Of a stretch of 62,105 nucleotides of DNA, positions 3,145 to 39,833 are shown piece by piece. Made by a program: the position numbers and the translations under genes. The stretch's first letter is position 1, and every line of letters starts with the position of its first letter. The DNA is taken from assembly GCA_964520615.1 (NCBI GenBank), contig CAZFNL010000120.1, positions 1-62,105 on the forward strand, written 5' to 3'. Under the pieces are notes generated by a model. That model saw only the letters and a list, made by a program, of their open reading frames with translations, was not told the origin of the DNA and searched no databases. This DNA comes from an uncultured Gammaproteobacteria bacterium (GTDB taxonomy: Bacteria > Patescibacteriota > Microgenomatia > 2-02-FULL-39-11).

Positions 3145-4352
3145 TAAATTGGTAATACTCCACTTTTGAGACTGAAAGGATTTAGAGTCCAAACAAGCTT
3201 GCATTGCAGTATAAACCCCACGTCATCCTCAACTATAGCTTTGTGTTTCCTTAGTAAAGTCTTATATTCCTGCCACCATAAAGATCTGGGTTTAACCTCA
3301 GAAAGTTTAACCAACACTGCTTTAGCAAAATCCTGGTTGACTTTATGCAGGAGAAAATGCCTGATGGACTTTTTTCCATCCGTCACCAAAAGACCATAGC
3401 CTTTTTGCCGGCAATACTTTTGCATCAATTTCCATTTGAAAACATTTTCCGAAAGCGCCATCTTAAAAACCGGACGCACATCAACCACGATCCGTTTTCC
3501 GCTGGAAAGCTCAAATAGGCAATCAGGATATATATATCTATCCTTGTCTTGTAACCGATATGACAGTTTCAAAGGTTGCTCTTTATACCAAACTACATCA
3601 TCATGTTTCTCCATATAAATAAACATCTCTTTTTCACGCCCTGATTCAAATTGTACTTCTCTTTTAAGCTTGTGGCTGTAAAAAGAGCCTGAATTTTTCT
3701 GGTAATCGAAAGGTACATTTCTTATCCTTCTTTTACTTTCCAGGCTGACTTCCTTAATGTCTGGTAAAGATAAGTCATTCATTTCCTCCAACTGTCCAAA
3801 CCACTCAACTTCAGACAATAATTTCCTAAAAACCAAAGACTGCTTATTATTTAGGTAGGAAGGTAAAGTCTTTACGGATTTATTCATCAGTCTCCTGACT
3901 TTTTTTATAAGTATTTTATGTCGGGAGAACGAAGGATACGCCAGAAGAAGAATCAGATTTTCTATACCATATCTTGCCGGCAAATAGGAAAAATATCTTT
4001 TTATGTATCTTGATATACGTCCGGCCAGCTTTTTATCCGTTTTACCTGTATCCCTAAATCTGTTTTTAAGATATGAAGAAATTCTCTGTGATGCGTTGTC
4101 TGCATCTACGTTTTTCATATCCGCTGTCATTTTTGATCTTATGAGGACTATGGCAGATCTGGAATCTTTTTTTATTTTTTGTAAAGGGAAACCTGTTTGC
4201 CTGGATATTTGAAAAAAAGTTAACGGTTTTTCACCACCAAAACCATACCTTTTCTCTAAAGCTTTCCTGTCTCGTAAAGACATACATGCTTCTTTTGCCA
4301 AATCTGCAAATAACTCCCCGAATTTCTTATCCCTAAGTGTATTACCTAACAT
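3141..4352 (-). CDS. Sigma70-region-4-like HTH fused to TnsA N-terminal-like PD-(D/E)XK endonuclease
   Basis: N-term RDRKALEKRYGFGGEKPLTFFQISRQTG; C-term FESGREK, YKEQPLKLSY, YIYPDCL, VVDVRP. Confidence 0.65.
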   Translation of the reverse strand: MLGNTLRDKKFGELFADLAKEACMSLRDRKALEKRYGFGGEKPLTFFQISRQTGFPLQKIKKDSRSAIVLIRSKMTADMKNVDADNASQRISSYLKNRFRDTGKTDKKLAGRISRYIKRYFSYLPARYGIENLILLLAYPSFSRHKILIKKVRRLMNKSVKTLPSYLNNKQSLVFRKLLSEVEWFGQLEEMNDLSLPDIKEVSLESKRRIRNVPFDYQKNSGSFYSHKLKREVQFESGREKEMFIYMEKHDDVVWYKEQPLKLSYRLQDKDRYIYPDCLFELSSGKRIVVDVRPVFKMALSENVFKWKLMQKYCRQKGYGLLVTDGKKSIRHFLLHKVNQDFAKAVLVKLSEVKPRSLWWQEYKTLLRKHKAIVEDDVGFILQCKLVWTLNPFSLKSGVLPIY

Positions 4353-32454: not shown

Positions 32455-33423
32455 TTAAGGTGAACCGGTCGGAACTACTGATTCTATATTTCTCCACTCG
32501 AAATTGTTAAAAATCCAATTTATCAGTTGAGTCGTCTCACCAAACCTATCGTCACTTTTTAATATAACAAAGAGTACCGATTGCCCATTCTTTTTTACCT
32601 CAGAAACCAATATTTCACCTGCATTTTGCGTATAACCTGTTTTTACCCCTGCCACACCCTGAATTTTCCCCAATAATTGATTTACGTTTGTCAATGAATG
32701 GAAATAGGTATAAGTCACATCTGAAACGGTAATATTTTTGATACCGATAATTTTGGTAAATGTTTTATTGTGAAGAGCTGCCATAGCCAACTTTGCCAAA
32801 TCGGAAGGAGTTGTGTAATTTGGGGGATCGTCAAAACCAATGGGATTGGCAAAATGAGTATGGGAAAGATGAAGTTCCTCAGCTTTTTTATTCATCATGT
32901 CTACGAAATTAGATACCCCTCCAGGATAATTTTCCGCAAGAGTATAGGCGGCATCGTTACCTGACTCAACAAGCGCTCCATAAAGAAGTGATTCAACAGT
33001 AATCTGTTCACCATGTACCAAACCCATTACGCTGCCATCCGTTATAACTGTATTCACTTTCAAAACGTCATCCAGATGGTAATGATCAAGAGCAACTAAA
33101 ACTGTTGCTATTTTTGTAGTAGATGCTGGAAGAAACTCTTCGTCTGGATTTTTCTGGTAAAGCACAACTCTTGAGGGTATATCCACAATATACACCCCTT
33201 GAGCCGTCACTGTTGGGGGTATAGGATTGCCCACCATTACCGGATAGGCTGGAGGAGAAGGCAATTTTATAGTTTGCGGCAAGTAGAATCCTCCTGTCTC
33301 AGCAACAGTCTGAAAATAAATATTTGGTGCAGGAAAAAGAAACAGAATTAAAGTAAAAAGAGCAAAATATGTTACCCGCCAAAAATTTTTTTTAGGGGAT
33401 TTTTTCCTAAAAACTTTTGTCAT
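32455..33423 (-). CDS. dacA: D-Ala-D-Ala carboxypeptidase (peptidase S11)
   Basis: ASTTK, SGN, KTG. Confidence 0.92.
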   Translation of the reverse strand: MTKVFRKKSPKKNFWRVTYFALFTLILFLFPAPNIYFQTVAETGGFYLPQTIKLPSPPAYPVMVGNPIPPTVTAQGVYIVDIPSRVVLYQKNPDEEFLPASTTKIATVLVALDHYHLDDVLKVNTVITDGSVMGLVHGEQITVESLLYGALVESGNDAAYTLAENYPGGVSNFVDMMNKKAEELHLSHTHFANPIGFDDPPNYTTPSDLAKLAMAALHNKTFTKIIGIKNITVSDVTYTYFHSLTNVNQLLGKIQGVAGVKTGYTQNAGEILVSEVKKNGQSVLFVILKSDDRFGETTQLINWIFNNFEWRNIESVVPTGSP

Positions 33424-33491
33424 TTATGAAGGAAAAAACGTTAATACCTTAAACTATCACAAGATTATCTTTAAAGTCATCAACTTGATTA

Positions 33492-34868
33492 TTATTTTTC
33501 ACCTTTGCGAAGAGATAATCCTAATTCCCTAAGTTGAGTAGGGCTAACTGGAGACGGGGCTTCCATAACAGACGTCCTTCCGCCTGAAGTCATCGGAAAA
33601 GCTACTACTTCACGCAAATACTGCTCGCCGGTCAAAATCATCATAAGACGGTCAACACCAAAAGCGCACCCTCCATGGGGAGGAGTCCCGTAGCTGAAAG
33701 CCGTCAGCATATGTCCAAACTTTTGCTTTATATCTTCTTTTTTATAACCCATGACTTCAAAAACGGATTCTAATATTTGTGGATCGTGAGATCTTATACT
33801 ACCGCCTCCCACTTCAAAACCGTTACAAACAAGGTCGTATTGGCTGGTTAGAATTCCTTCTATATTTTTCTTCTGCAATAAATCATTTACATTCTCTGGC
33901 ATAGGATTTGAAAACGGATTATGAGTAAATGTCCATTTGTCCTCTTTATCCTTTTCAAAAAAAGGAAAATCAATCACCCAAGCAAAAGCTTTGACACCTT
34001 CTTTATTTTCTTCATCTGTTCTCAAATCAAATTTGTCAGACTTAAATTTTTCCATCGCTTCTTTATATGTAAATACCGGAAAAGGTTTCTTCTTTATCTT
34101 CTGTCCCATTTTTTCCATCACTTCTGTAATCATTTTTTCCAGCATATCCATCACGTCTTCTCTTTCCACAAAACTCATCTCAATATCAATCTGCGTATGC
34201 TCAAACCCTCGGTCGGCACGCAAATCCTCATCCCTCATACATCTGGCTATCTGGAAATATCTCTCCATCCCTGCAACCATCAGAAGCTGCTTATATTGTT
34301 GTGGAGATTGGGGTAAGGCATAAAAATTGCCAGGCTGAAGCCTAGATGGAACAAGGAAATCTCTTGATCCTTCAGGTGTTGACTGCGACAAAAGAGGAGT
34401 CTCAATCTCTAAAAAGTTATTTGAGAATAGGAAATTTCTTATGTTTTGGACAAATTGTGAGCGCAGTCTTATATTCCTATTCAATCTTTTCCGTCTCAAA
34501 TCCAAATATCTATACTTCAGTCTTACCTCCTCGTTGATATCATAACCATCACCATCAATAGGAAAAGGTAACTCACGTGATCTGGATAAAACTTCAATAG
34601 ATTTTATCTCTATCTCAATTTTCCCCGTTTCTATATTTGGGTTAACCATCTTTTCAGGACGCGCCTTGATTAATCCTGCAATTCTTACCACACTTTCTGC
34701 TGACACTTTAGCCAGTCCTTTAGCGTCTACTGTCTGTACTGTACCCGTACTATCTCTCAAATCGATAAAAGTGATCTTACCGTGATCTCTCACGGCATTT
34801 ACCCAGCCGTACAAAGTCACTTCTTCACCAACTTTGCCGACCGTATCTTTTATAAGTACCCTCAACAT
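33492..34868 (-). CDS. aspS: Aspartate--tRNA ligase, short form lacking GAD insertion (probably non-discriminating)
   Basis: RDHGK, RLKYRYLDLRR, TPEGSRDF, LPQSPQ, DEDLRADR, GTPPHGG; only 458 aa. Confidence 0.93.
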   Translation of the reverse strand: MLRVLIKDTVGKVGEEVTLYGWVNAVRDHGKITFIDLRDSTGTVQTVDAKGLAKVSAESVVRIAGLIKARPEKMVNPNIETGKIEIEIKSIEVLSRSRELPFPIDGDGYDINEEVRLKYRYLDLRRKRLNRNIRLRSQFVQNIRNFLFSNNFLEIETPLLSQSTPEGSRDFLVPSRLQPGNFYALPQSPQQYKQLLMVAGMERYFQIARCMRDEDLRADRGFEHTQIDIEMSFVEREDVMDMLEKMITEVMEKMGQKIKKKPFPVFTYKEAMEKFKSDKFDLRTDEENKEGVKAFAWVIDFPFFEKDKEDKWTFTHNPFSNPMPENVNDLLQKKNIEGILTSQYDLVCNGFEVGGGSIRSHDPQILESVFEVMGYKKEDIKQKFGHMLTAFSYGTPPHGGCAFGVDRLMMILTGEQYLREVVAFPMTSGGRTSVMEAPSPVSPTQLRELGLSLRKGEK

Positions 34869-34942
34869 AAAAATAAATATTTGATTAAAAGGACCACTAG
34901 TACTAAAACCTGATAAATAGATATTTTGAAATTAGAGAAAGT

Positions 34943-36139
34943 TTAACGGTTGTATTTTTTGATTGCCAAACCCAATAACTCTATTGCCCTTTCAAGCTTC
35001 TTTTCCTCTAGTACATAGGCAATTCTGATCTCGCTACTACCCAACCCCGGTGTAGCATAGAAACCAGTCGCTGGAGCCACCATAACCGTCTCTTTCTTAT
35101 CAGAAAAATCACTTAGAAGGTATGACGCAAAGTCATCACTGTCTTTTATCGGAAGCTTAGGAATTATATAAAAAGCTCCTTCGGGCGCAACCGCTGTCAC
35201 ACCTGGAATTCTTTTCAGCTCACGCACCACTGTATCCCTTCTGCTCTCATAAAGTTTCCTTATCTTGGCGACATAAGGCTTATGATTTAACAGCATAGGA
35301 ATAAGAGCCATCTGTTCAACTGTAGCTACAGACAATCTTCCCTGTGCAAACCTTAAAATTGACTGCATTATTTCCTTATTCTTACTCACTACACAACCTA
35401 TCCTCACTCCGCAACTATTAAAACGTTTGGAAACGCTATCCGTCACAACCAACTGGTTTGCAAGTTTGGGAAATGAGGCAAACGGCAAGACTTTTTTCCC
35501 GTCAAAGACTAACTCCTGATAGGTTTCGTCAGAGATGATAAAAAGATTGTGTTTCAAGGCCAACTCTACAATCATTTTCACTTCGGCATCCGTATAGAGA
35601 GTACCGGTAGGATTATTTGGATTGCACACTACAATCCCTTTAGTTCTTACGGTAATTGCTTTCTCAATTACTGCTTTAGGCGGAAGATGGAAACCATCCT
35701 CCACTTTTGTCCTGACTGCTTTTAATTTGATATTGCCCATTGCAGCAATTATTGCGTAGCTTGTATAAAAGGGCTCAAAGACTATTAACTCATCTCCGGG
35801 ATCTGCCACTGTAAGAAAAGCAAAAATCAGACCTTCCGAACCTCCGCTTGTTACCAATATATCAGAGGCATCAAATTTTATTCCCTTATCACTATAAAAC
35901 TTTTTCCATGCCTCCATAGTCTCATATACACCAGTTGATGGAGCATATTCTATAGTAGATTCCTTAAAATGCCTTATGGCCGAAAGTATTGGATCAGGGG
36001 TTGGCAAATCAGGTTGGCCTATATTCACATGGTAAACCTTGATTCCCCTTTTTTTGGCTGCATCAGCCAAAGGCACCAGTTTTCTTATGGCAGAAGCGGG
36101 CGTATTTGCTGCCCTTTTTGAGACAGAAACTTTTTTCAT
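34943..36139 (-). CDS. PLP-dependent class I/II aminotransferase (aspartate aminotransferase-like)
   Basis: NIGQPD, CNPNNPTG, SDETY, SVSKRFNSCGVRIG; start MKKV at 36139. Confidence 0.9.
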   Translation of the reverse strand: MKKVSVSKRAANTPASAIRKLVPLADAAKKRGIKVYHVNIGQPDLPTPDPILSAIRHFKESTIEYAPSTGVYETMEAWKKFYSDKGIKFDASDILVTSGGSEGLIFAFLTVADPGDELIVFEPFYTSYAIIAAMGNIKLKAVRTKVEDGFHLPPKAVIEKAITVRTKGIVVCNPNNPTGTLYTDAEVKMIVELALKHNLFIISDETYQELVFDGKKVLPFASFPKLANQLVVTDSVSKRFNSCGVRIGCVVSKNKEIMQSILRFAQGRLSVATVEQMALIPMLLNHKPYVAKIRKLYESRRDTVVRELKRIPGVTAVAPEGAFYIIPKLPIKDSDDFASYLLSDFSDKKETVMVAPATGFYATPGLGSSEIRIAYVLEEKKLERAIELLGLAIKKYNR

Positions 36140-36233
36140 ATTTATTCCTCCTTTTATTTTATAAAAAGCAGGTCCTTGATAATCTCTACCAATTATATAC
36201 GAAACTACTCCTACACCCAAGCCATCATTTATC

Positions 36234-37748
36234 TCAACCCAAACTTTGCCTCAATAAACCACCGTAAGTAATCAGTTTTGAAACATCCTTACCTTCCACA
36301 ACCTTCTTATAAATTTTTTCCACAAGATTGTAATGCTCTAGATGTGTGGAATTACCAGGGCCAAGTACTATTCCTAATTCTTTTTCGATCTCCTTAGTAT
36401 CTTCTTCTACGTCATACCAGAAGGAATTGCGCTTTGCAAGACGGGATAAATTCTGCCTATTCAGGAAATTACCCGCATGAAGCAAATCTTCTTTAATATG
36501 AATATAATACTGTGAAGATTTTTCCCATAAGCCTTTTTTCTTTGCCTCTTTTATACCTCTCCCTGTCCCTATCAATTCAGGAGGCACACCCAATGAATAT
36601 AAGGATGCGGTAAACGGAATAGCCCTCGGCAAACTGACATGACCCACACCTCTTGAGTATCCGAAAAGTCCTATATGAAGCATCCTTTCTCTTCTTTTGG
36701 CTACTTGCCTGCTTAAAGCATTTATCATTCCTGCTGCCTGTTCTATCGAACTCCTATAGGGCTTCTCAAAAAGAGGAATGGTTCTTTGTATGATATCTAC
36801 ACTTGTTTTGTCCAGTCGTTTTGCTTTTCTATGATGGAGCTCATTATTTAGCCTCTCAATGGCAAGTTTCACATCGTGTTTGGGATAGTCGTATCTGAAA
36901 GCGCTTTGTATGGTCAACGTGCGTACTCCGGCATATTCAGACAATGCAATGTCCAACCTGTCAGGACTAAGTCCACCTCTAAAAGGCAACGAACCTGTTC
37001 CCAACATAGGAAAAAACCTTACATCAGTATCTTCCTCCAGCTTCAAGTAGGAGGATAATGCTACTTTTAGGGATAATATCGTCGGGATAAGCCCCGAGTT
37101 TAGTGCCGGGTCGCTCCTTGCACAATAAGGCCTTATATATTTGGGTTTGTACCCAAACATCTTTTTGTGTAATGCAATATATTTTTTCAGAATTCCGGCA
37201 GATCCGGCAATCTTACCCACTTGTTCAAAAAGAGGTATTATTTCCAAATATTGCAATGAGTCCTTCATATTCAAAAGCCTGTGATTTACACTGATCAAGT
37301 CTTTGAAGGCTTCCTGAATCTCTGCGATTTCTTCTGCGGTTTCCGTCAGAGGAAGAATTGTTTCAAAAATTGGTGGTGAAGAAAAACCCAGACTCCTAGC
37401 AAGCTGGCTGCTTGTAATAATTACCATAAAAGCCCTAGCCAACCTGAATTGCTTTTCCACTCTGGGATTTGGAATCCTGAAAGTAAGAAGCTTATCTTTC
37501 CCTATCGGATGTTTTTGGAAGTAATTGAAATAACGGTGCAAAAGTTTATCTATGACCGCCTCATCCACAAACTTCCCTTCCCAATCCCAATTATACTCAT
37601 CTATAGAAAGATCAGAAAAATTCAGGTAACTTTCTTTTATCTCAGCGCTTGTTGAGATGAAAGGTCTTGGATTCCAGTAAGGCCTGGCAGCATTGTCCGG
37701 ATGCTGCGTGGCCATGCAAGCTGAGATTTTACGGTTTATAGTGGTCAT
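36234..37748 (-). CDS. ppcA: Archaeal-type phosphoenolpyruvate carboxylase
   Basis: MATQHPDNA, WDWEGK, ARSDPALNSG, GSLPFRGG, PRAIPFTAS; 504 aa. Confidence 0.92.
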   Translation of the reverse strand: MTTINRKISACMATQHPDNAARPYWNPRPFISTSAEIKESYLNFSDLSIDEYNWDWEGKFVDEAVIDKLLHRYFNYFQKHPIGKDKLLTFRIPNPRVEKQFRLARAFMVIITSSQLARSLGFSSPPIFETILPLTETAEEIAEIQEAFKDLISVNHRLLNMKDSLQYLEIIPLFEQVGKIAGSAGILKKYIALHKKMFGYKPKYIRPYCARSDPALNSGLIPTILSLKVALSSYLKLEEDTDVRFFPMLGTGSLPFRGGLSPDRLDIALSEYAGVRTLTIQSAFRYDYPKHDVKLAIERLNNELHHRKAKRLDKTSVDIIQRTIPLFEKPYRSSIEQAAGMINALSRQVAKRRERMLHIGLFGYSRGVGHVSLPRAIPFTASLYSLGVPPELIGTGRGIKEAKKKGLWEKSSQYYIHIKEDLLHAGNFLNRQNLSRLAKRNSFWYDVEEDTKEIEKELGIVLGPGNSTHLEHYNLVEKIYKKVVEGKDVSKLITYGGLLRQSLG

Positions 37749-37804
37749 ATTAATATTGATTCCAAACCTTCTGAATATTGTGTAACCATATCGTCTAAGA
37801 TTTT

Positions 37805-38120
37805 ACCCAAAAAAAATCCCACCTTTTTCTAAGGGTGAGACTATCACGGTACCACCTTATTTTGGTTATGAGTGATGTTTAGCGGGTGATGGGTTTTTAA
37901 TGATCATATTTCGTAACCCACAACTCACAACTTATCCCGCCTCAGCGGGATCCATAATGCTTTAAGACTCAATAATTTTTCAACAGCATCGGGACATACC
38001 CACAACTACTTATTCCAGCTATCACGGGCATACCCGGCAAGGATCTAATTTCCGACTATGTGGATTTCTTCCTGCAGCTTGTTAGAAAAATCTAACTATG
38101 GCGTGTCGTCGCCATTGTAG
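37805..38120 (-). ncRNA. T-box riboswitch (tRNA specificity not resolved)
   Basis: Antiterminator AAGG-UGGUACC-GUGA...UCAC-CCUU at 37831-37858 overlapping a terminator with U-tract (37809-37840); GCCCGUGAUA stem II-like motif at 38020-38029; 5' boundary uncertain. Confidence 0.8.
37934..37951. repeat. REP-like palindrome inside the T-box leader
   Basis: ATCCCGC-ctca-GCGGGAT. Confidence 0.65.
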
Positions 38121-38123
38121 CTT

Positions 38124-39833
38124 TTAGTCAATTTCCGATTTGCTCGTGATGATAACATCTTTAAGTTTTAATTGCAAACGCCTATTTCCATTCCAACTAT
38201 CTATGTTTATTGAAAAAGCAATATCTACCAGTTTGTGCGGATAAAGCTTCTTAAAAAACTCACCCATCCCAAAACCCACAGCCTGATGTATCCTTCCATC
38301 ATTTTGTCTCACGAACATTTTTATATGTTTCTGTTCCCTACCAACCAATGACAAACCAACAACTTCTGCATTTTTTACGGCAAATACTGGTTCAGGATTG
38401 CCCACACCAAATGGAGAAAGTGTGTTTATTTTCTCATAAAAATCCTCTGTTATCTCATTAAGAGTCAGAATAGCGTCTATTTTAAGAGTTCTTTCCAATT
38501 TTATTCCTGACAGTTTTTCCTCTACTACCGAATTTAATCTCTTTTTAAGCATATTTATATTTTTTGTCGCTACGGTAAAACCCGCCGCCATCGCATGCCC
38601 CCCAGCATCCTCAAGCAAATCCCCCGCTTCCCTTATCACTTCCACAATATTCAATCCGTTAACTGATCTGGCTGAAGCTTTTGAGTATTCCTTTCCCTCT
38701 GACACGACTATTGAAGGACGGTAATAAGTCTCTGTCAATCTACCTGCAACAAGTCCTATTATCCCCTCCTGAAACTGATTATGTGATACGAAAATCAGAT
38801 TGCTACCTTTCCCATTTTTATAAAGCATTTCATTCCTGACGATATCCATTGCCAGAATAGAAGCTTTTTCCGTAAGTATTTGCCTTTCCCTATTTGTTAA
38901 AGAAAGTTTTCTGGCTAAAGACTCTGCCCTATCTATATCTTTAGTGCATAAAAGCCTGAGTGCATCCATTGCGTGCATCAACCTACCCATGGCATTTATC
39001 CTGGGAGCAAGAATATGCCCTATCTCATATGTAGACACATCCCCGTTTTCAAGACCCGATTGTTTTATAAGAGACCTCAAGCCTACACGGCGCGTATTTT
39101 TAATCTCATCTATACCATATTTCACTATTACCCTGTTTGCGCCCAAAAGCGGAACAAGATCAGCAACTGTGGCTATTGCTGCCAAATCAAGGTTACTTTT
39201 ATCCGTCTGACCAGATTTACTCAAGTCATTCTTTCTGAAATACCGATGTTTTGAAAGGAAACTGGAAAAAAAGTAAGCAAGTCCGCCAGAAGCAAGAAAA
39301 GTCGTATGTATTAATGCTACCGAACCCGGCAATTTTTGGGGGAGTATATGATGATCCAGTATAATCGTGTCTATACCTTTTTCCTTGGCATAGGCAACCT
39401 CTTTTACCGCCGTAACCCCATGATCGACTGTCACAATAAGTTTTGTGCCAAATTGCTCTATAATTTTGTCAATCCCTTTTCTTGACAAACCATAACCTTC
39501 ATTCACCCTATGCGGAACATATGGCATTACATTGACTCCCAATTTATAAAGCGTTTCCCAAACTATTGCCCCTCCACATACACCGTCAGCGTCATAATCC
39601 GTATAAACGGTAACCGACTCCTTTCTTTTAATCGCTATTTTTATCCGTTTTGCAGCATTCTCCAATTCTTTGGTTTTAAGATGAGCGCTTGCTAAAGTCA
39701 GATCGGAAAGTTTTGGGTGAAGAAATTCTTTTTTTTCTTTCTCACTGGAAATATTTCTATTTCCGAGAAGAATTCCCAGAATGTCTTTTTTATTATCGGA
39801 TGCTGATTTTTCAAGTATTATCCACTTCTTCAT
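38124..39833 (-). CDS. recJ: ssDNA exonuclease RecJ
   Basis: DYDADG, VDHG, DHH, GGHAMAAG. Confidence 0.95.
   Translation of the reverse strand: MKKWIILEKSASDNKKDILGILLGNRNISSEKEKKEFLHPKLSDLTLASAHLKTKELENAAKRIKIAIKRKESVTVYTDYDADGVCGGAIVWETLYKLGVNVMPYVPHRVNEGYGLSRKGIDKIIEQFGTKLIVTVDHGVTAVKEVAYAKEKGIDTIILDHHILPQKLPGSVALIHTTFLASGGLAYFFSSFLSKHRYFRKNDLSKSGQTDKSNLDLAAIATVADLVPLLGANRVIVKYGIDEIKNTRRVGLRSLIKQSGLENGDVSTYEIGHILAPRINAMGRLMHAMDALRLLCTKDIDRAESLARKLSLTNRERQILTEKASILAMDIVRNEMLYKNGKGSNLIFVSHNQFQEGIIGLVAGRLTETYYRPSIVVSEGKEYSKASARSVNGLNIVEVIREAGDLLEDAGGHAMAAGFTVATKNINMLKKRLNSVVEEKLSGIKLERTLKIDAILTLNEITEDFYEKINTLSPFGVGNPEPVFAVKNAEVVGLSLVGREQKHIKMFVRQNDGRIHQAVGFGMGEFFKKLYPHKLVDIAFSINIDSWNGNRRLQLKLKDVIITSKSEID

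Follow-up and report, generated by a model that had tools for sequence, protein, structure and literature searches.

The window analysed here, 62,105 nucleotides (nt) of the contig CAZFNL010000120.1, carries between the genes recJ and ppcA a T-box leader (38122-37809) that we read as an aspartate-specific T-box riboswitch, acting by transcription attenuation in front of three genes. These are ppcA, a class I aminotransferase gene (AT) and aspS, which code for an archaeal-type phosphoenolpyruvate (PEP) carboxylase (PEPC), an aminotransferase and an aspartyl-tRNA synthetase (AspRS). We give this reading a probability of about 0.8. tRNA binding, read-through, the promoter and a single transcript shared by the three genes are the parts of it that we infer. 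Positions are those of the window, and all of its features described below lie on the minus strand. An earlier note on the same DNA had proposed a T-box ahead of an operon leading from PEP through oxaloacetate and Asp to Asp-tRNA, and this proposal is supported by RNA structure, covariation and the identities of the genes.

A protein-guided scan yielded 18 related loci, titled mostly as Gottesmanbacteria and in one case as Roizmanbacteria, of which 15 show the gene order recJ-ppcA-AT-aspS. The check suggested in the earlier note, a search for the same leader before ppcA in relatives, was positive: a T-box core with a terminator lies between recJ and ppcA in seven loci (L001, L004, L006, L010, L013, L017 and L018). 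The titles of the relatives also bear out the remark that the genome resembles those of the Candidate Phyla Radiation (CPR).

The antiterminator of the window leader (37858-37831) coincides with the high-posterior part of the Rfam alignment and is backed by covariation. Helix A1 (AAGG, 37858-37855) pairs with A1' (CCUU, 37834-37831), helix A2 is formed by GUGA-UAGUC-UCAC (37847-37835), and the 7-nt T-box bulge UGGUACC (37854-37848) is located between A1 and A2. In the eight sequences compared, all 70 cells of its nine pairs are paired (100%), and four pairs are changed on both sides, a result matched by 0 of 500 shuffles. The intrinsic terminator (37840-37817), a conserved hairpin present in the minimum free energy (MFE) fold, pairs UCUCACCCUU with AAGGUGGGA around one bulged C and is directly followed on its 3' side by a U8 tract (37816-37809). 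Positions 37840-37831 are common to the two structures, which are consequently mutually exclusive. The MFE structure of the segment is the terminator, at -11.2 kcal/mol, compared with -2.7 kcal/mol for the canonical antiterminator alone; the greater stability of the terminator fits a switch that is off by default and needs stabilisation by tRNA. Hairpin and U-run are found in eight of eight leaders, with compensatory changes in L006. A simple terminator scan missed the hairpin because of the bulged C, and the whole window contains a single T-box core with a terminator. The antiterminator/terminator claimed before ppcA is thus real, with its core, its overlapping terminator and U8, and its conservation in seven relatives. 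The word 'canonical', used for it in the earlier note, suits the 3' half but not the 5' half: a long Stem I is missing there, as is, in the genome at hand, a kink-turn (K-turn).

In the unconstrained MFE fold, the Stem I domain (38122-38076) is a three-way junction of three helices. Its closing helix, supported by the fold and by covariation, pairs AGCU (38122-38119) with AGCU (38079-38076). Stem I itself pairs AUGGCG (38115-38110) with CGCCAU (38103-38098), giving 6 base pairs (bp) and a 6-nt loop, ACGACA (38109-38104). An extra hairpin, GUUAGA-UUUU-UCUAAC (38096-38081), stands between Stem I and Stem II. The closing helix covaries (AGCU/AGCU, GACU/AGUC, GACG/CGUU), L004 and L010 having the same junction design with the different compensating sequences GACU/AGUC and GACG/CGUU. 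Stem I is kept with compensatory changes in 10 Asp leaders; its pairs were counted by script, since MAFFT on full 5' domains misaligned L010 and L004. The eight ppcA leaders share the hairpin plan GGYG-NN-GACA-CRCC, and GACA is invariant on the 3' side of the loop in these eight and in two aspS leaders, across six different helix sequences. Because of this invariance, and of the short-stem design known from ileS-type T-boxes, we assign the specifier to GAC (38107-38105), read by tRNA-Asp, followed by the 3' purine A (38104). A consensus K-turn, GC-NNN-GA...GA-GC, replaces the extra hairpin in L013, L017 and L018; in the window leader, the modelled three-way junction would substitute for it.

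Stem II (38075-38037) has a base formed by GCAGG (38075-38071) and CCUUGC (38042-38037), two S-turn strands, AAGAAA (38070-38065) and AAUUAGAU (38050-38043), and a short top helix, UCC (38064-38062) with GGA (38053-38051). The base helix covaries in relatives (GCAAG/CUUGC, UUGGA/UCCAA, UCGGA/UCCGA, CGGG/CCUG, CGAG/CUCG). The strands GAAGAA(A) and (A/G)(G/U)UAGA match the S-turn purine string described in PMC7583486, and they recur in Ile, Asp and other leaders regardless of the amino acid. The triplets GAU (38045-38043) and AUC (38065-38063), which had been put forward as candidate specifiers, do exist but are located within these S-turn strands, and we do not regard them as such. GAN/AUC/ACC of the Stem II 3' strand was also rejected as a specifier: the S-turn motif is the same whatever the amino acid, and it is GACA that is invariant instead.

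The Stem IIA/B and F-box element, CGGGUAUGCCCGUGAUAGCUG (21 nt, 38036-38016), was located by pattern match. The 19-nt Stem IIA/B pattern has one occurrence in the window against 0 expected, and the 21-nt element has the consensus CGGGUAWGCCCGNNAYAGCWG in eight leaders. It would correspond to the compact pseudoknot of 21 nt described in PMC7583486. According to folding, the variable Stem III region (157 nt, 38015-37859), with AAUAAGUAG at its 5' end, is branched. In comparison with L001, which has a PEPC of 97% identity, the region contains about 85 additional nt, and these lie between AAGT(A)GTTGTG direct repeats. The linker or Stem III of the relatives ranges from 10 nt without a stem (L004, L010 and L013) up to 105 nt. 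On a contig of a co-occurring strain (DNA run X1), 46 other letters replace about 134 nt of the window sequence (38002-37867).

The assignment of GAC agrees with what is found in other short-stem leaders. Scanning metagenomes for the IIA/B pattern yielded 75 loci in which it precedes a T-box core, about 30 of them with a short Stem I, and in these unrelated leaders the loop triplet plus purine predicts the downstream gene. AUC-A precedes ileS in nine loci, GAC-A precedes aspS in L042 and L125, and AAC-A precedes aspS in L105; AGC-A is found before serS (L117), UGG before trpS (L028), UGC-G before a cysteine synthase gene (L046) and UCC-A before a gene for a PspA-like phosphoserine phosphatase that scores below its cut-off (L093). 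At the position facing the tRNA discriminator, seven of the eight ppcA leaders carry UGGU, and UGGC is found in L017, L042 and L125. The discriminator of bacterial tRNA-Asp is G73. The variation between U and C fits G73, since U forms a wobble pair and C a Watson-Crick pair with G, while A73 cannot pair with C. UGGU had been held in the earlier note to disfavour tRNA-Asp; this argument loses its force, as U can wobble with G73 and related Asp leaders carry UGGC.

A covariance model, R1, was built from 12 independent Ile-type 5' domains only (91.7% of cells paired, 9 of 15 pairs compensatory). In 220 kb, searched on both strands, R1 matched exactly the eight ppcA leaders, at 46-70 bits, and nothing else; the window leader scored 49.8 bits (E 7e-8). 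In the two alignments printed, those of L006 and L013, the model placed GACA on AUCA. Both R1 and the Rfam model align the first hairpin of the relatives as Stem I.

The genes downstream are those expected from the proposal. recJ (39833-38124) is followed by a spacer of 375 nt and by ppcA (37748-36234), whose product of 504 amino acids (aa) matches TIGR02751 with 462.5 bits (cut-off 146) over profile positions 2-506 of 506 and is therefore full-length; it also matches PF14010 (E 1e-130), and its nearest solved relative is PDB 3odm (E 8e-53). The second gene (36139-34943) encodes a class I pyridoxal phosphate-dependent aminotransferase of 398 aa matching PRK07568 with 541 bits (cut-off 389). 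The listed open reading frame begins at TTG 36220, but the true start codon is ATG 36139, preceded by AAGGAGG and separated from the ppcA stop by 94 nt. The top solved relative of this protein is 2gb3 ('aspartate aminotransferase', 344 bits), the next being a Thermus aspartate aminotransferase (AspAT), and judging from sequence the enzyme is probably an aspartate aminotransferase. After a further spacer of 74 nt, aspS (34868-33492) encodes a bacterial-type AspRS of 458 aa, which matches NF001750 with 626.7 bits (cut-off 443) in two stretches of the 590-position profile; the GAD insert of about 130 aa is absent. A DD-carboxypeptidase gene comes next. Profile searches and ribosome-binding sites (RBS) thereby confirm the earlier gene calls and distances, including the 94 nt to the ATG.

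The end of recJ probably contains the promoter from which transcription would begin. The candidate site there comprises the -35 box TTGCAA (38177-38172), a 17-nt spacer and the TG-extended -10 box TATCAT (38154-38149), with 9 of 12 matches and TG. TTGCAA-17-TAnnAT occurs at the same place in all seven leader-bearing relatives and is also kept in leaderless ones; because the site overlaps the conserved RecJ C-terminus LQLxLKDV, its role as a promoter stays putative. In the nascent leader, GAC and the stacking A would be displayed in the tip loop of the very short Stem I, and the S-turn of Stem II together with IIA/B would clamp the codon-anticodon helix formed with tRNA-Asp (anticodon GUC), in the manner of the actinobacterial ileS T-boxes. 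The 3' end (G)CCA of an uncharged tRNA would pair with UGGU and stabilise the antiterminator, and the polymerase would read into ppcA, the AspAT-like gene and aspS. When the tRNA is charged, the more stable terminator with its U8 would form. By this mechanism, low charging of Asp-tRNA would switch on the route PEP + HCO3- -> oxaloacetate -> Asp -> Asp-tRNA. Control may be dual in several relatives, where the 3' strand of the terminator also carries the ppcA Shine-Dalgarno (SD) sequence.

A number of observations weigh against this reading. Stem I is a 6-bp hairpin, and the long Stem I with a tRNA-elbow platform, generally required by transcriptional T-boxes (PMC7583486), is absent. The K-turn has been called essential for leaders with a short Stem I (PMC7583486), and its tandem G.A pairs are absent in the window and in L001 (GC-UAC-AA-UGGCG...CGCCA-UA). 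In a search of 700 nt, RF00230 matched positions 38025-37828 with an E value of 2e-4 and 28.5 bits, where the gathering score is 93, and an Rfam scan of the whole window gave no match at any gathering score; by Rfam's own criterion, the leader is not a T-box member. This score is below the threshold because the distal Stem I is missing. The Infernal check with RF00230, suggested in the earlier note, thus gave a match to the leader with a score short of the gathering value. L017 reached 44.7 bits with the same model, its K-turn and short hairpin being aligned as Stem I and 7 nt replacing 76. The Stem I alignment proposed by Rfam in the window (38025-37985) was rejected, as it falls mostly within the stretch of about 85 nt that is absent from the near-identical L001. 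R1, having no slot for the extra hairpin, sets the window Stem I on it, and because of this mis-assignment it is by homology with the relatives that we place Stem I in the window. UGGU requires a G.U wobble with G73. ARAGORN found no tRNA gene in the window or in L001-L018, and among the 18 tRNA genes that it found across all 138 loci none is for tRNA-Asp, Asn or Glu. The ppcA ATG stands 60 nt past the terminator, behind a weak RBS, and a promoter-like site within the ppcA-AT spacer, described below, adds to the doubts. No contigs over 33400-38300 were found in three metatranscriptomes of the same mine-drainage study. Finally, the leader is absent in about half of the relatives.

Among the alternatives, the one that retains most credit, while still unlikely, is that the T-box controls ppcA only and that the aminotransferase gene and aspS are transcribed from their own promoters without regulation by tRNA. 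The AT-rich 94-nt spacer between ppcA and AT contains a TTGGGT-17-TATAAT-like site and a strong RBS, and a further promoter-like site, with 9 of 12 matches, lies across the AT-aspS junction. However, the region has about as many promoter-like hits as expected by chance (16 versus 15.4), the terminator scan detected no terminator-like site on the operon strand in either the ppcA-AT or the AT-aspS spacer, and in most relatives the spacers are only about 5-60 nt long with the same gene order. Moreover, aspS is a natural target, because other Asp leaders sit directly before it (L042, L125). It is improbable to a greater degree that the leader has stopped responding to tRNA and is now a relic in decay, or else a terminator or pause site that acts constitutively. 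The lack of a K-turn consensus, the extra hairpin between Stems I and II, the strain-variable Stem III region 85 nt longer than that of L001 and the several losses of leaders among relatives would be compatible with decay. Against this, all of the tRNA-contacting elements are intact (the specifier with its A, the S-turn, IIA/B, the bulge, and the A1 and A2 helices), and an unresponsive terminator before aspS, a gene that is usually essential, would be costly; the junction design shared by L004 and L010, with covarying helices, argues for a selected alternative architecture.

Slightly less credible again is control exerted mainly at translation, through SD sequestration as in the actinobacterial short-stem T-boxes. 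It draws on L006, L010, L013 and L018, in which the terminator 3' strand holds the ppcA SD (GAGGUGA or AAGGAG) and the ATG follows directly after the U-run. In the window, by contrast, 60 nt separate the hairpin from the ATG, the SD is not part of the hairpin, and eight of eight leaders keep a run of U5-U8 immediately after the helix. Such runs are missing from the sampled short-stem leaders of high GC content and actinobacterial appearance, whereas those of low GC, including all the ppcA leaders, have hairpin and U-run. There is very little to recommend the idea that the leader reads another tRNA, either tRNA-Ile via AUC or one matching the internal-loop GAU, and so couples the end product Ile to the aspartate supply. 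UGGU does form Watson-Crick pairs with the A73 of tRNA-Ile, and AUC is present at 38065-38063 and 38044-38042. Yet these triplets belong to the Stem II S-turn (GAAGAAA / UAGAN), which is the same in ileS, aspS and other leaders, the S-turn triplet position varies between U, A and C among the ppcA leaders while GACA of Stem I is invariant, and UGGC of L017 cannot pair with A73. Transcription attenuation by tRNA-Asp over the three genes remains the reading that we prefer.

The closest described relatives of such a leader are the actinobacterial ileS T-boxes (Mycobacterium, Nocardia), which have an ultrashort Stem I (Sherwood 2015, as cited in PMC7583486 and PMC7778990). Their design combines a codon plus purine in the apical loop, a Stem II S-turn purine string and a 21-nt IIA/B pseudoknot (PMC7583486). 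Short T-boxes are described as translational and mostly actinobacterial (PMC7583486), and TBDB treats them likewise. The window leader resembles the ileS T-boxes in having its specifier and purine in the apical loop, no elbow-binding double T-loop platform, a Stem II S-turn, a 21-nt IIA/B element and a UGGN bulge, and an Ile-type model finds the ppcA leaders. It differs in that the ileS T-boxes are Ile-specific, located before ileS, translational and without a U-tract, whereas the window leader is specific for Asp, precedes ppcA-AT-aspS and has a hairpin with U8. A three-way junction, moreover, replaces the K-turn consensus in the window genome.

The aspS and hisS-aspS leaders of Firmicutes are canonical class I transcriptional T-boxes with GAC. 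The window leader shares with canonical class I (RF00230) the antiterminator/terminator switch, the bulge, the F-box/IIA region and the Asp codon logic. Unlike it, the window leader has no distal Stem I of about 76 nt, with its internal specifier loop, AG bulge and distal loop, and its target includes an anaplerotic carboxylase. A 2008 survey of T-box regulons (PMC2494555) contains no PEPC-type target, and our literature search found no paper linking T-boxes with PEP carboxylase or with CPR, in keeping with the description of this target as unusual in the earlier note. The leaders of L042, L125 and L105, which stand on metagenome contigs of low GC content, have the same architecture, a GAC-A (or AAC-A) loop and a terminator with a U-run, and in L042 and L125 the AspRS encoded downstream is GAD-less, as here. 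These three leaders differ from those of Gottesmanbacteria in being located directly before aspS and in carrying UGGC; the latter mostly have UGGU and stand in front of ppcA, with two genes between them and aspS.

A wider proposal, to which we give even odds, is that a so far undescribed class of co-transcriptional T-boxes may exist in CPR bacteria, here Gottesmanbacteria, as well as in further uncultivated lineages of low GC content. In this class termination would be decided without the tRNA-elbow platform, which current models consider necessary for rapid capture of tRNA. In this lineage it would also be decided without a K-turn, a three-way junction orienting Stem I relative to Stem II. 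The class would serve at least Ile, Asp, Asn, Ser, Trp and Cys, and in Gottesmanbacteria it may have been recruited to gate the carboxylation of PEP into the aspartate family. A Stem I of about 20 nt coupled to a terminator, here with a junction and no K-turn, would make a compact test case for the rules on the long platform and the K-turn, and such short leaders would be small parts for engineered tRNA sensors. From PEP and CO2, a CPR organism regarded as metabolically minimal appears to produce aspartate, with a flux that is tied directly to the charging of tRNA-Asp. Since the Rfam threshold misses the short-stem class, T-box regulons in CPR genomes are under-called.

The distribution of the leader on the PEPC tree is patchy and implies at least three gains or losses. 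One of these events is visible in L012 (3960-4005), a close sister of L013 (3820-4005) without the leader, in which the deletion is clean. Immediately in front of the ppcA ATG, L012 keeps the promoter-like site TTGCAA-17-TAGGAT and GAGGTTTTTT, which is left over from the 3' strand of the terminator. As L012 corresponds to L013 minus the leader, the leader is a discrete and removable module; its deletion should make the operon constitutive.

Several minor observations concern the same loci. L004, L008, L013 and L017 come from TPA MAG records titled 'uncultured Gammaproteobacteria bacterium', yet they have the Gottesmanbacteria gene order and their PEPC sequences cluster accordingly; these titles look like mislabels. 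In L017 only, a very stable spacer of 138 nt (3863-4000, MFE -60.8 kcal/mol) separates the terminator from ppcA. It had no Rfam match, and blastn-short found no relatives of it among the loci; a similar stretch was noticed by eye after the terminator of L057, which blastn did not confirm. An upstream open reading frame (uORF) of 14 codons, MVTQYSEGLESILI, lies between the terminator and ppcA in the window (37789-37745), its TGA overlapping the ppcA ATG (ATGA), and L001 has a differing version; as it is without a clear RBS, it is probably not meaningful.

The leaders of L044, L028, L117, L093 and L075 have an even more reduced design. The gene for a full-length AspRS of 597 aa in L105 (4381-6171) is preceded by a short-stem T-box whose specifier is AAC (Asn) and whose bulge reads UGGC; this suggests a non-discriminating enzyme that would be regulated by the charging of tRNA-Asn. 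AspRS without the GAD insertion is also encoded by aspS of the relatives (L001-L017). The syntenic aspS genes of the relatives fall into two groups of identity to the window AspRS, about 70% and about 52%, and as these groups do not follow the PEPC tree, they hint at replacement of aspS within the operon.

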